Of a stretch of DNA of 64,000 nucleotides, positions 45,854 through 49,075 are shown in pieces. Source of the stretch: Candidatus Bathyarchaeia archaeon. Its GTDB lineage: Archaea > Thermoproteota > Bathyarchaeia > 40CM-2-53-6. The DNA lies in NCBI GenBank assembly GCA_049517415.1, contig JBEKSC010000009.1, positions 1 through 64,000 on the forward strand. The letters are read 5' to 3'. Position numbers and translations under genes: made by a program. Position 1 is the stretch's first letter. The number at the start of each line of letters is the position of its first letter. The notes beneath the pieces are model-generated. The model did no database searches. It worked only from the letters and a program-made list of their open reading frames with translations, and had not been told where the DNA came from.

Positions 45854-46207
45854 ATGAGTCGACTAATTGTTTTCGAACCCGACCTCCTATTCTCATCAAG
45901 AATAGAGAGCGCCGCCGCGAAGGTTGGCTTCTCCGCAAAGGTTTTCGACAATTTAGATGAATTTCTCCAAGAAGCCAAGCAATCGACGCCACAGGTCGCT
46001 CTCGTGAACCTTGATGTCGCAGTGGGAAAATTTGCGGTCCTGGAAGGCCTCGCCCGGAGTTCGTCTTGTAAGGTGGTCGGGTACTATTCGCACGTGAACA
46101 GCAGTTTAGCTGAAGAGGCGCAGCGCACTGGAATCAACGCCGTGTTTCCTCGAGGAGCATTCGCGAACAAACTCGAAGCGCTGTTGAGAGAGTTCTCATC
46201 AGGCTGA
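45854..46207 (+). CDS. Receiver-like (CheY fold) protein
   Basis: DLLFSSRI..SHV..A...G...V.PR. Confidence 0.7.
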   Translation: MSRLIVFEPDLLFSSRIESAAAKVGFSAKVFDNLDEFLQEAKQSTPQVALVNLDVAVGKFAVLEGLARSSSCKVVGYYSHVNSSLAEEAQRTGINAVFPRGAFANKLEALLREFSSG

Positions 46208-47041
46208 CAGTTCCCTTACTCTTCGCATGTTCTCCTTCTCGTCGCCGCGTTCATCGATGGGTGTTTCCATGATGAAGGGGAGGTTTCGAACCGCCTCGTG
46301 CTTGAAGAGCGCCCTGAAACCTTGTTCTCCAATGTATCCCAAGCCTATGTGCTCATGCCTGTCCCTGCCGGAACCTAAACCGACCTGCGAATCATTCAGA
46401 TGAATTACCTTCAATATGCTGAAACCCAGAATAGAATTGAATTTCCCGAGAGTGCCGTCAACGCCCCGTGGTGAGTGCAGGTCATAGCCGGCCGCGTACG
46501 CGTGCGCAGTATCGAAACAGATCCCAACGCGTTTTCTATTCTCGACTCGGTCCAAGATTCTCTTAATGTCTTCGAAAGAGGAGCCCATGCTGTTCTTGGT
46601 TCCCGCGGTGTTTTCGAGGAGGAGCATGACGTCGTTCGGGTTCTCTGAAAGTGCGTGGTTTATTGCGTCCACAATTTTTTCTAAGCCTACGTCGGAGCCT
46701 TCACCGAGGTGGCTTCCCAGGTGTGTCACAATGTATGGGATTCCCAGCGTCCCGCACCTATCAAGCTCGCCACTGAGCGATTTCACGGACTTGTTGTAAA
46801 TTAGCTTCTTAGGCGAGGAAAGGTTCGGCAGGTAGGGCATGTGGGCTACGACGGGAGTTAGGTTGTACGACCCGACCTTCCTTTTGAATTCTGCAACTTC
46901 TCCGCGGTCAAGCTTCTTGTATTTCCAGCCCCTCGGGTTCCTGGTAAACATTTGAAACGTGTCACAGCCTAGTTCGCGGGCGCGGTCAGCCGCTTGATCG
47001 ATTGTCCCCGAAATTGAAACATGCATCCCAAGTCTGATCAA
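46199..47041 (-). CDS. nfo: Endonuclease IV
   Basis: G.HVSI, QMF..NP, H.PY..NL, ENTAG, DTAH, HLNDS, DRHEHIG, ETP. Confidence 0.95.
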   Translation of the reverse strand: MIRLGMHVSISGTIDQAADRARELGCDTFQMFTRNPRGWKYKKLDRGEVAEFKRKVGSYNLTPVVAHMPYLPNLSSPKKLIYNKSVKSLSGELDRCGTLGIPYIVTHLGSHLGEGSDVGLEKIVDAINHALSENPNDVMLLLENTAGTKNSMGSSFEDIKRILDRVENRKRVGICFDTAHAYAAGYDLHSPRGVDGTLGKFNSILGFSILKVIHLNDSQVGLGSGRDRHEHIGLGYIGEQGFRALFKHEAVRNLPFIMETPIDERGDEKENMRRVRELSA

Positions 47042-47175
47042 AAACCAATCTCCCCAGCGAACAATGACCAGGTTTAGAAAGAAAAGGCGTTCGATTCGCA
47101 GCGGCCTCGGATGAACCCTCAACTTTGGCAGCTTGGAAAAGTTGATATGAGAACAGACCTCCACGGACACGCGAT

Positions 47176-47289
47176 GGCCGCCGTAGCGTAGAGGAGTCCT
47201 AAACTCCGCGAACCTTGGTAGCGTATAGACCCACTTAGGGATACAAGGCTGTGGACCCTACGGGGCGAGTTCAAATCTCGCCGGCGGCC
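47176..47289 (+). tRNA. tRNA-His(GTG) with two non-canonical introns (~15/16 at 47192-47213; 29/30 at 47229-47246)
   Basis: Encoded G-1, acceptor GCCGCCG/CGGCGGC, C73; spliced anticodon arm TAGGG-CTGTGGA-CCCTA; T arm GCGAG-TTCAAAT-CTCGC; BHB helix GTAT/ATAC. Confidence 0.9.
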
Positions 47290-47296
47290 CTCACCA

Positions 47297-48241
47297 TTAA
47301 GACTCCGTCGTCCTCAATTCAACGATTTTAGGGAGCTCCCTCACAAGACTTCGAAGCCGTAGATTGACTTCTTGAATTCGCTCGATAGTGCGAGGCGCGT
47401 TTAGAACAGGTGACCCGAATTCTCGCCTCATTCTGGAGATTGCGGACTCAAAAGCGGACTCCGGAATAGCTCCTGAAACCTTCAGCGTGGACATGCAGCC
47501 AGTGAGAAATGACAGACGGTCGAGCACGCTAGTTCTAGGCGGACATTCTCCAAGCTCTTCGAAGACCATCATGCGTGAGATGTGAGATGGGTTCGAGAAA
47601 CCAATTTCCTTTCTCCAGAGATCGATGTCGGCAGAACCATTGATCTGTGCGATGTGGCGTGGGCGTCTTCCAAATCCACCCGGCTCGGCATTCAATCTGC
47701 AAGAAACATTGACGCCGAGTTCTCTCCCGAGAAATTTTGCCAATTCCTCAATTACCGCTCGTGCAGTCATCTTGATTTGGATCCTAGGATATTTGTGAGG
47801 CTGGGTTTTTGAGGCGTTGTAAAATCCTAGGACCCCGTCTGTGGCAAGGATTTCTCGCACGAAATACTTCATCAGACGAGCGTCGTCAAGAATGGCGGAG
47901 GGTATTGAGGGACTAATCTTTCGTCCATTAGGAAGGCCAAGGACCCTGTGCTTGAAGAGTGCAACGTTCTTGCTTTGAAATACGATGGACATCCAAGTCC
48001 TTCCAGGGTCGAGATAAACTCCAAACTTGTGGAGGTCGTATGCCGATTCGATGGTCGGAATAACATGACTTAGAAGATAGAGCTGGTCTTCCAGAGCGTT
48101 CCCTGTGATATCGTAGCAATAATTAGTGTTGGTTCCGTTTTGTCTGATGAATAGGTGACCGTCTCCAAGGTGAATGCCAGTATCGGCTGCGACCTCAGGT
48201 GTCATCGAGAACATTGCACTGTAATGTGAATCAAGATTCAT
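47297..48241 (-). CDS. Free-standing double-motif LAGLIDADG homing endonuclease-like protein
   Basis: ADTGIHLGDGH and FVREILATDGV motifs; GL..G.K, YPRI.I, IGFSNP. Confidence 0.82.
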   Translation of the reverse strand: MNLDSHYSAMFSMTPEVAADTGIHLGDGHLFIRQNGTNTNYCYDITGNALEDQLYLLSHVIPTIESAYDLHKFGVYLDPGRTWMSIVFQSKNVALFKHRVLGLPNGRKISPSIPSAILDDARLMKYFVREILATDGVLGFYNASKTQPHKYPRIQIKMTARAVIEELAKFLGRELGVNVSCRLNAEPGGFGRRPRHIAQINGSADIDLWRKEIGFSNPSHISRMMVFEELGECPPRTSVLDRLSFLTGCMSTLKVSGAIPESAFESAISRMRREFGSPVLNAPRTIERIQEVNLRLRSLVRELPKIVELRTTES

Positions 48242-48297
48242 ATTCTGGGTTGGAGGTGCAGAGGATGCAAGAGTACTGTGAAACTAAGACGACCCCA

Positions 48298-48349
48298 AGG
48301 GGTTCAAAGCGTCGTTCTCGCGACGTGAAAGTCCCCTCGGCGGCCCTCA
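48298..48349 (+). pseudogene. tRNA 3' fragment (His-like) carrying a 23-nt BHB intron at 59/60
   Basis: AGGGG-TTCAAA[GCGTCGTTCTCGCGACGTGAAAG]T-CCCCT-CGGCGGC-C; last 12 nt identical to 47282-47293. Confidence 0.8.
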
Positions 48350-48421
48350 ACAATTCATTTTTGAGGCGGGAGGCGTAAATTCCTACGATAATCAGGGTGG
48401 TGGGTTAGAATCATCGATCGG

Positions 48422-48643
48422 ATGCTGAGGCGAAGCGGGCCTGGTACGTGTGAAGTCTGCGAGAGGAAACCTGCAACAAGGAAAGCGAAGTTTACTGCAC
48501 AATCTCTTCAATCTACTTCTATGCCTTTGTTTGACGAGGAGTCGCTCGTTGCAGGGGAATTTGAGAAGAGGGTATGTGAAGAATGCCTAACCTTCTTGCA
48601 GAACGCGAAGAACGTAACGGACCTCACCTTCGAACGATTGTGA
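48422..48643 (+). CDS. Small Zn-finger protein
   Basis: CEVC..CEEC. Confidence 0.6.
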   Translation: MLRRSGPGTCEVCERKPATRKAKFTAQSLQSTSMPLFDEESLVAGEFEKRVCEECLTFLQNAKNVTDLTFERL

Positions 48644-48755
48644 GCAAGTTTAACTCAACCTCGGACGTCGTGTTCGACAACCACTGAGAAAGAATTCTCG
48701 CTCATCCGGTCTGCGCGGAAGGGTTAAAGGTTTGAGTCAGAACGTGTAAGCAAGT

Positions 48756-48871
48756 GGGCCGGTAGTTCAGCCTGGTATGCCAAGTGTTCGCTGGGCCAAA
48801 GAACGTCCGGTTTGCAAGTTCTTCACCAAGCTTCCGGAAGGTCGCGGGTCCGAATCCCGCCCGGTCCACCA
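48756..48871 (+). tRNA. tRNA-Ala(TGC) with introns at 21/22 (48779-48800) and 37/38 (48817-48832)
   Basis: GGGCCGG/CCGGTCC with G3:U70, encoded CCA, BHB helices TGGT/GCCA and TTTG/CAAG. Confidence 0.93.
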
Positions 48872-49075
48872 ATTTTAAGCCTTGCTTTTCCCGAGTTCTG
48901 ACCGTTTCTTGCCCGAACGGTTCGGATTTGGGCCAGTTGGTTTTTCGGTGCTACGAGATTTCCTAATGGGTAGAAGCCCGCATAATTCTTTGATTCCAGT
49001 CCCGAGGAGCCAATTATCATCATTCAAATGTCTCAAGCAGTAAATCTACTACTGCAAAATCAATTTAACAAGTTG

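Follow-up and report, generated by a model that had tools for sequence, protein, structure and literature searches.

In the window analyzed here, a stretch of 64,000 nucleotides (nt) from the Bathyarchaeia contig JBEKSC010000009.1, a transfer RNA (tRNA) gene for histidine is followed by an antisense gene for a LAGLIDADG homing endonuclease and, beyond it, by an orphan second copy of the 3′ part of the same tRNA gene. From comparison with related genomes, we consider it very likely that this arrangement is a ~1-kb integrase-free homing cassette, lodged in an archaeal chromosomal tRNA gene and equipped with a replacement module for the 3′ end of that gene. The unit would comprise, in this order, the replacement module (copy A), the antisense endonuclease gene and its leader, with an intron-bearing arm (copy B, the orphan) stranded downstream (table 1). 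The arrival, movement, and loss of archaeal tRNA introns being a long-standing question, such a cassette bears directly on it: it would be one route by which archaeal tRNA introns are lost or gained without an integrase.

The contig belongs to a 2.65-Mb assembly of 100% estimated completeness, coded G000, from which the codes of the other genomes run onward; loci are coded L and genera g1, g2, g3, and g15. Since the genomes and loci are related to one another, several being close kin, all counts below are descriptive and do not refer to independent events. The arrangement recurs with 100% identity on metagenome contigs of 163 and 106 kb and is present in 20 DNA runs from 19 studies (16 flagged as possible sources of the window DNA), which excludes an assembly artifact. 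The runs that contain the stretch are peat, wetland, and soil metagenomes, with no RNA run among them, and the orthologous cassette loci likewise come from soil Bathyarchaeota/Bathyarchaeia metagenome-assembled genomes.

Anatomy of the tRNA-His Locus

The tRNA-His(GTG) gene matches the Rfam tRNA model RF00005 over positions 47177-47289 with 29.9 bits, for a cut-off of 29, and with two long insertions. In the unspliced window ARAGORN reported no tRNA, whether its intron option was on or off, because the genes are too interrupted, and we thus relied on Rfam and on in silico splicing; after removal of both introns in silico, ARAGORN called tRNA-His(GTG). The 5′ part of the gene is common to 48 other genomes of the family. 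Intron 1 was delimited against the tRNA-His genes of genus g2, in which it is missing, and intron 2 was found by a scan for bulge-helix-bulge (BHB) motifs, with a central helix GTAT/ATAC, an outer helix of 5 bp, and an inner helix of 3 bp. A variant of intron 2, GGATACAA, found in G000 and G015, was considered as a mark of co-conversion and dropped, because among the metagenome cassettes it occurs only in L089 and L092 and is absent from L083, L084, L085, L086, and L091. The T arm of copy A (47265-47281) reads GCGAG TTCAAAT CTCGC and is intron-free, and its pair 52:62 is A-T, all other tabulated T stems having G-C at 52:62. An earlier, sequence-only reading of this DNA had described an intact tRNA-His with a GCGAG/CTCGC T arm and no T-loop intron, a description that is borne out by the sequence, by Rfam, and by in silico splicing.

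The orphan begins 56 nt beyond the start codon of the endonuclease gene. A BHB motif consists of two 3-nt bulges with a 4-bp helix between them and further helices outside, and is cut at defined positions. The intron predicted in the orphan, as read from the sequence, fits this scheme, the layout being AGGGG, TTCA, AA-cut-G, CGTCG..CGACG, TGAA, AG-cut-T, and CCCCT, that is, a central helix TTCA/TGAA, an outer helix AGGGG/CCCCT, and an inner helix CGTCG/CGACG. The 12-mer that ends copy A (47282-47293) recurs at the end of the orphan, and 51 of the 52 bases of the orphan are those of the T arm, intron, and acceptor strand of G016, G017, and G020. Its structure is thus not a product of chance, because relatives have the same intron-bearing T arm as the regular 3′ end of their tRNA-His. 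On this basis, the features that the sequence-only reading had attributed to the fragment (an AGGGG/CCCCT stem, a perfect 23-nt BHB intron at 59/60, and the shared terminal 12-mer) stand, and the match that it had envisaged to an unrelated tRNA was not found, the orphan being the tRNA-His 3′ end of relatives. Past the orphan, the DNA remains syntenic with the empty allele of G014, at 90% identity.

Table 1. Features of the tRNA-His locus in the window, with the sequence identity (as a fraction) of G000 to two metagenome loci
Feature	Positions	Strand	Remarks	Identity to L083	Identity to L085
Neighboring AP-endonuclease-like gene				0.67	0.71
Spacer				0.57	0.49
tRNA-His(GTG) gene, functional copy	47176..47289	+	G-1 = 47176; discriminator C73 = 47289		
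Intron 1, 22 nt, D loop (15/16)	47192..47213	+	Relaxed BHB, one G-A mismatch in the central helix		
Intron 2, 18 nt, anticodon stem (29/30)	47229..47246	+	Strict hBHBh′ motif		
Copy A, candidate replacement module	47265..47293	+	T arm 47265-47281; acceptor 3′ strand and C73 47282-47289; trailer CTCA 47290-47293	1.00	1.00
Free-standing double-motif LAGLIDADG homing endonuclease gene (predicted), 314 amino acids	47297..48241	-	Motifs and model fold	0.86	0.85
Leader of the endonuclease gene	48242..48297	-	71-80% identical to L085 and L083, host flanks unalignable	0.80	0.71
Orphan 3′ part of tRNA-His, copy B	48298..48349	+	T stem AGGGG/CCCCT, T loop, acceptor 3′ strand, C73, CTCA		
BHB intron in the orphan (predicted), 23 nt, T loop (59/60)	48309..48331	+	Strict helix-bulge-helix-bulge-helix		
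Downstream				0.37	0.25

Could the orphan be a working part of a split tRNA, joined in trans to a separate 5′ half or in cis by removal of a giant intron, as the sequence-only reading had alternatively proposed? Both its BHB intron and its T stem are undamaged, its acceptor strand fits the 5′ end of tRNA-His, and its splicing in silico onto the 5′ part yields a valid tRNA-His. Against this, the 2.65-Mb assembly holds no second 5′ acceptor/D-arm part, its best complement to 48242-48297 is 14 nt long (E 0.36), and no BHB joins position 48 to 48298 as a giant cis intron would imply. Moreover, orphans elsewhere are mismatched, truncated, or absent, none being recognizable in five of the nine reference genomes with an endonuclease gene or remnant. 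We thus find a split tRNA scarcely credible, and this part of the earlier reading is set aside.

Where the orphan is recognizable, its condition varies. It is found in the four other of these reference genomes (G000, G015, G024, and G063) and in all seven metagenome loci whose far side is in reach. Intact in G000, L083, and L086/L087, it has a mismatched or chimeric stem in L084/L090 (GTGGG...CCCCT), in L085 (CCGGG...CCCAC, intron-free), and in G015, is truncated in L089, and is ruined in G063. The chimeric stems of L084/L090 and L085 suggest recombination junctions within the T arm.

Empty Sites and Content of the Insert

To describe the locus in relatives, we searched 40 of them at the DNA level and 59 genomes of the family by pattern; together, these searches recovered the tRNA-His locus in 49 genomes. 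In G014, the flanks of which are 90-91% identical to those of the window, positions 46200-47282 are joined directly to 48300-48872, so that the insert is absent; it measures ~1 kb, with the endonuclease gene as its only content. G004, G018, and G021 are likewise empty, 47282 being joined to ~48300. Overall, the T arm is readable in 16 genomes of this genus that are devoid of the endonuclease gene, not counting G012, which stops at a contig edge. Each of the 16 has an empty site and three introns, including the one at 59/60, and their T stems are GTGGG, AGGGG, GCGGG, CGGGG, or CCGGG, never GCGAG. The sequence-only reading had predicted that empty alleles would carry both the 59/60 intron and the AGGGG/CCCCT stem: the former holds in 16 of 16, the latter in three only. 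As for the coexistence of alleles, run X20 contains a G014-like empty allele alongside the cassette-bearing population, and no endonuclease-free allele of the window's own population was found on the DNA contigs of four runs.

With regard to the tRNA-His gene itself, it can be noted that its T stem has five variants within this one genus, or six with the cassette arm, whereas its acceptor and D stems do not vary at all and its anticodon stem differs by no more than one or two pairs. Introns also differ by genus: g1 has them in the D loop and at 29/30, and g2/g3 have one that interrupts the anticodon (34/35).

Integration into tRNA genes classically leaves direct repeats of the tRNA 3′ part behind, and in Caldiarchaeum a recombinase element lies between a tRNA fragment and a tRNA of other intron content (PMC3293823). 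The locus could in this respect be the scar of a virus or plasmid that integrated into the 3′ end of tRNA-His and then decayed to a passenger endonuclease gene. Between the repeats, however, the LAGLIDADG gene is the only open reading frame (ORF) of more than 100 amino acids and no recombinase is found, as is also the case in the related loci that we inspected. Furthermore, the same ~1-kb unit, with its stop codon abutting the tRNA end, recurs at 18 loci in several genera; purifying selection acts on the endonuclease gene, which travels from species to species with its arm (see below); and, whereas att repeats agree in sequence, the two T arms do not. This origin is therefore very improbable, and the integrase-free route put forward in the sequence-only reading agrees with the content of the insert.

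The Predicted Endonuclease

The stop codon of the endonuclease gene begins 8 nt past C73 of tRNA-His. Its product bears two LAGLIDADG motifs, near GIHLGDGHL and EILATDGVL (residues 19-30 and 127-138), with the acidic residues D27 and D135, both of which are invariant in six of six orthologues. Used alone, the window protein matched no Pfam family up to E 10, and a PDB search with this single sequence was uninformative, its weak matches to ene-reductases (E 0.05-1.7) being discarded. A profile of the endonuclease relatives, by contrast with the single protein, matches I-Tsp061I (2dch, E 6e-6) and intein endonucleases, and PF14528 is matched by five of 13 aligned relatives (best E 4.7e-11). The AlphaFold model (predicted local distance difference test, pLDDT, 90.7; predicted template modeling score, pTM, 0.90) shows a doubled alpha-beta-beta-alpha-beta-beta-alpha order, and Foldseek relates it to I-DmoI (E 1.5e-9) and I-Tsp061I (target-normalized template modeling score 0.77) among 144 PDB matches at E <= 0.001. 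On the strength of motifs, profile, and model fold, the 314-residue product is a double-motif monomeric LAGLIDADG endonuclease, for which cleavage is predicted; the antisense double-LAGLIDADG ORF that the sequence-only reading had placed 8 bp from the tRNA end is thereby recovered.

I-DmoI and I-Tsp061I are archaeal monomeric LAGLIDADG endonucleases encoded in BHB introns of ribosomal RNA. They are the best structural matches of the window enzyme, I-Tsp061I (2dch) being also its best profile match, and share with it the presence of two motifs per chain. They are encoded inside the very intron that they mobilize, whereas the window enzyme is free-standing and antisense to its host gene, carries ~95 extra C-terminal residues, and is only 17-18% identical to them in sequence.

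Pairwise ratios of nonsynonymous to synonymous divergence (dN/dS) among intact copies of the gene are 0.06-0.21, with 0.17-0.21 for the gene of the window, and the protein is therefore maintained by selection. Its leader, which is conserved between loci beyond what the host flanks are (table 1), probably holds the promoter of the endonuclease gene; the motif TGTGAAACTAAGA at 48277-48289 (plus strand) lies within it and is kept in L083, L084, and L089.

Linkage of the T Arm to the Endonuclease Gene

Orthologues with 53-56% amino acid identity occupy the same place in the same antisense orientation in G023, G024, G047, G060, and G063; the copy of G043 is partial, being cut by a contig end, and its locus position is not readable. 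With paralogues at other loci included, matches to the endonuclease at E <= 0.001 occur in 21 of 105 genomes of the order, and of the 48 tRNA-His loci of reference genomes in which the T arm can be read, nine have the gene or a remnant of it. A scan of genome contigs with the single window protein as query found no relative. A scan of metagenomes with an alignment of six orthologues as query added 11 loci, two of them 100% identical to the window and nine 65-85% identical.

Across these loci, the GCGAG/CTCGC arm is found at nine of the 18 that are linked to an endonuclease gene (G000, G064 with its remnant, L083, L084, L085, L086, L087, L090, and L091) and at three of the 37 endonuclease-free loci with enough downstream sequence (G065, G068, and G070); this count excludes G042 and G047b, in which the sequence ends too early. 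Copy A of the window is identical at every position beside endonuclease genes of two other species (84-85% identical), and copy A of L083 is the same as that of the window plus a 59/60 intron. Indeed, the arm comes in both intron states, with the 59/60 intron in L083, L084/L090, and L086/L087 and without it in G000, L085, L091, and G064, and six of the seven intron-free T loops in the survey sit on a GCGAG arm. Judging from these comparisons, the GCGAG arm is a traveling companion of the endonuclease gene across species.

It might be objected that a similar locus would result if the tRNA 3′ part had been tandemly duplicated on the spot and the endonuclease gene had then inserted independently between the copies, copy A being in that case a diverged local copy. 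Gene-free tandem duplicates of T arm and acceptor do exist in the family, at locus L027 of G021. Yet copy A is identical between species even where the host flanks show 50-70% identity or cannot be aligned, it occurs in none of the 16 endonuclease-free congeners, and the insertion point and orientation are the same at all orthologous loci. A local duplicate would be expected to group with its own orphan and with host relatives rather than with other cassettes, and the data show the opposite. We thus regard a local duplication as very unlikely and retain the reading of a cassette that carries its own arm.

Horizontal Spread and Decay

The four nearest relatives of G000 by the neighboring housekeeping gene, namely G014, G018, G021, and G004 (94.6, 89.9, 89.5, and 87.3% amino acid identity to the window), are all without the endonuclease gene. 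Conversely, in L083, L085, and L091 the neighboring gene has an identity of 72.5, 77.2, and 74.2%, against 84, 85, and 82% for the endonucleases found there. At synonymous sites, the divergence (dS) of the endonuclease is 0.42-0.52 in pairs in which the neighboring gene is saturated, so that NG86 returns no estimate for the latter; for G000 and G014, the dS of the neighboring gene is 0.315. The endonuclease being less diverged than the neighboring gene, horizontal spread is indicated.

The distribution of most orthologues at the same locus across three genera, together with the decay of several of them, might also be explained by an old endonuclease gene, vertically inherited and now immobile, with many losses and with arm differences due to drift. 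Such a history is at odds with the contrast in dS in the same genome pairs, with amino acid identities of 84-85% for the endonuclease and 72-77% for the neighboring housekeeping gene, and with the absence of the gene from the four closest relatives of G000, and we take it to be extremely unlikely.

In this regard, a mobile cassette with a life cycle is consistent with the series of loci, which comprises empty, intact, and decayed stages, plus possible footprints. G015 and G046 have broken copies of the gene, and G064 keeps only ~240 nt of its 3′ end. In G015, the cassette-side tRNA-His (L007/L022) also has ~19 additional bases, placed exactly where the variable loop gives way to the T stem, which resemble a partial duplication of the T stem and not a clean BHB intron; a second tRNA-His 5′ end was not found in this genome.

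A Putative Mechanism of Gene-End Replacement

If the locus is indeed a homing cassette, the endonuclease would cut tRNA-His genes that have no endonuclease gene, within or close to their variable-loop/T-arm region, and the break would be repaired from a cassette-bearing copy, with the conserved tRNA 5′ exons serving as left homology arm and the orphan as right homology arm, a role that we infer for the latter as sequence conservation between species does not extend past the tRNA gene. The functional gene would thereby gain the T arm of the cassette and its intron state in one step: an intron-free cassette entering an intron-bearing tRNA-His would make the functional gene lose its intron at once, as may have happened here with the 59/60 intron. 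Copy A would escape re-cutting through its altered stem, with A-T at pair 52:62, and copy B through the replacement of its left context by cassette DNA. A later deletion between the two 12-mers could then produce an endonuclease-free gene with the imported arm.

Several points weigh against this scenario or narrow it. The cassettes of the g2/g3 clade, with endonucleases 53-56% identical to that of the window, have copy A stems of ordinary sequence (GCGGG, GTGGG, and AGGGG), and the cassette-side stem of G015, L089, and L092 is CCGGG; a resistant GCGAG arm is therefore not a general property of these cassettes. Three genomes of genus g15, in the same family, bear GCGAG without any trace of an endonuclease gene, G065 and G068 with an intron-free arm and native-type trailers and G070 with an intron, and the arm is thus not exclusive to the cassette. 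G065 and G068 fit footprints of a deletion between the two 12-mers after invasion, but they could equally represent the native source lineage of the GCGAG arm, since the stem of G070 is found together with an intron. The sequence-only reading had counted GCGAG arms in endonuclease-free relatives against itself: they are absent from the 16 congeners but present in these three genomes of another genus. The orphan raises a similar difficulty. It is of the AGGGG type, like the orphan of L083, and matches G016, G017, and G020 and not the nearest relatives of the window, which have GTGGG. The earlier claim that the unit arrived with its own tRNA 3′ part is thus upheld by the GCGAG linkage, and the accompanying claim that it displaced the resident part is not strictly shown; the window orphan may be partly donor-derived by co-conversion and not strictly the resident copy. 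Lastly, we infer the target site and the immunity of the modules from sequence.

Known Systems and Significance

The closest parallels come from fungal mitochondria, in which mobile ORFs (mORFs) make hybrid genes, as reported for atp6 of Allomyces macrogynus and for atp6, atp9, cox2, and nad3 of Glomus sp. (PMC3630166); in Endoconidiophora, partial C-terminal duplications of cob and atp6 lie beside endonuclease ORFs (PMC6279837). The likeness lies in the order of elements, with a foreign 3′ end followed by a LAGLIDADG (or GIY-YIG) ORF and the displaced native 3′ end ~1 kb downstream, and in the origin of the two ends, the inserted one being foreign and the native one resembling relatives, from which horizontal transfer was inferred. 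In the window, the same order is found: copy A is absent from the 16 congeners and identical in other cassettes, and the orphan agrees with congeners at 51 of 52 bases. In contrast to the mORFs so described, the host gene encodes a tRNA in an archaeal chromosome where theirs encodes a mitochondrial protein, the antisense ORF makes no in-frame fusion, and the module alters the BHB-intron content and the T-stem sequence.

A second parallel is SegB, a free-standing GIY-YIG homing endonuclease of the tRNA gene cluster of phages T4 and T6 (PMC13096335, citing Brok-Volchanskaya 2008), the cleavage motif of which, RAWTSGAAC, is the complement of the T-loop consensus (PMC13096335). As presented in that source, SegB resembles the window enzyme as a free-standing endonuclease beside tRNA genes, and it cuts within tRNA genes and promotes co-inheritance of the tRNA region. 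It differs in its enzyme family, its phage host, and the lack of introns, and neither a replacement module nor an orphan is described for it in the account cited here. At the tRNA-Thr(GGU) locus of Caldiarchaeum subterraneum, an orphan fragment and a full tRNA flank a 1.8-kb mobile insert (Sugahara et al. 2012, PMC3293823), which its authors proposed as a route to intron gain and tRNA fragmentation (PMC3293823). As far as this locus is presented there, it shares with the window an orphan tRNA fragment and a full tRNA gene of different intron number around an insert, when the element is a recombinase element with a duplicated 5′ part, unlike the LAGLIDADG gene alone, at a specific site, and with the 3′ part duplicated, in the window. 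Within the literature that we covered, to which subscription journals did not belong, no LAGLIDADG cassette duplicating part of an archaeal tRNA gene was found described.

A 2026 preprint on Asgard tRNA introns states that "how they arrive remains open" (10.64898/2026.10.13.758758). The loci compared here would provide a natural allele series for a one-step, integrase-free exchange of a tRNA module for one with different intron content, which would remove the 59/60 intron in tRNA-His and a 53/54 intron in the second tRNA gene presented below. They would also take the endonuclease cassette that replaces a gene end beyond fungal mitochondria, into archaeal chromosomes and RNA genes, and would add a new LAGLIDADG scaffold, the predicted target of which is probably a conserved tRNA gene sequence. 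The intron question could thereby be tested experimentally, for which a single protein of 314 residues and a few tRNA-gene substrates would suffice.

Paralogues and Neighboring Features

A paralogue with 32% identity lies antisense behind a multi-intron tRNA gene in G011 and G004, with its stop codon at the tRNA end, and is followed by an orphan 3′ part of ~115 nt with an additional BHB intron at 53/54. The tRNA is probably tRNA-Tyr, given its C1:G72 pair and GTA triplet; blind BHB splicing followed by ARAGORN gave an ambiguous result, with several isotypes called. Eleven congeners, including G000 (C2:37338-37582), have an empty site with an orphan-type end at this second tRNA gene, and G006 and G010 have a cassette-type end without the endonuclease gene. 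In terms of layout, the same cassette design is thus present at a second tRNA gene, with a distant paralogue.

From there, one may tentatively ask whether the LAGLIDADG cassette family is a general engine of tRNA-gene remodeling in Bathyarchaeia, with stem and intron variants as immunity alleles, a generalization that we hold to be possible if somewhat doubtful. Each cassette would target one tRNA gene, carry a cleavage-resistant module, and keep a native-type module as homology arm, and serial homing followed by endonuclease loss would exchange T arms between species and lead to gains or losses of BHB introns. If true, this would explain the diversity of T stems, the patchiness of introns, and the existence of orphan tRNA fragments, and would amount to an arms race.

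Further paralogues are found beside other tRNA genes. Short ones of 200-250 amino acids adjoin a tRNA-Trp gene at L031-L034 (G044, G041, G055, and G053) and account for four of the five PF14528 matches among the aligned relatives; the long intron of this tRNA-Trp resembles the known box C/D guide RNA, and at L034 a 21-nt direct repeat of the tRNA-Trp 5′ part lies beyond the far side of the ORF. Two long paralogues (366-368 amino acids), at L026 (G001:C5) and L027 (G021:C184), have GNG for GDG at the first catalytic aspartate and a long extra C-terminal domain, and may be nickases or inactive. At L026, a 10-nt copy of the 5′ end of the same tRNA lies upstream of the paralogue ORF, and at L027 two tandem copies of a T arm (with T-loop intron) and acceptor, ~45 nt apart with no gene between them, lie ~150-330 nt downstream of the 366-residue ORF.

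In the window itself, the next tRNA gene after the orphan is again interrupted (48756-48868, plus strand; RF00005, 46.3 bits; insertions of 29 and 18 nt). Between the two stands a 73-residue ORF with two CxxC pairs (48422-48643, plus strand), for which conservation in the four nearest relatives is 84-95%. This second tRNA gene has its CCA end encoded, unlike the tRNA-His of the window, and its anticodon-loop TGC and G3:U70 pair suggest tRNA-Ala(UGC). Over the whole genome G000, the Rfam tRNA model detects only 18 tRNA genes, 16 of which are 90-187 nt long, and the remaining ones appear too interrupted for detection.

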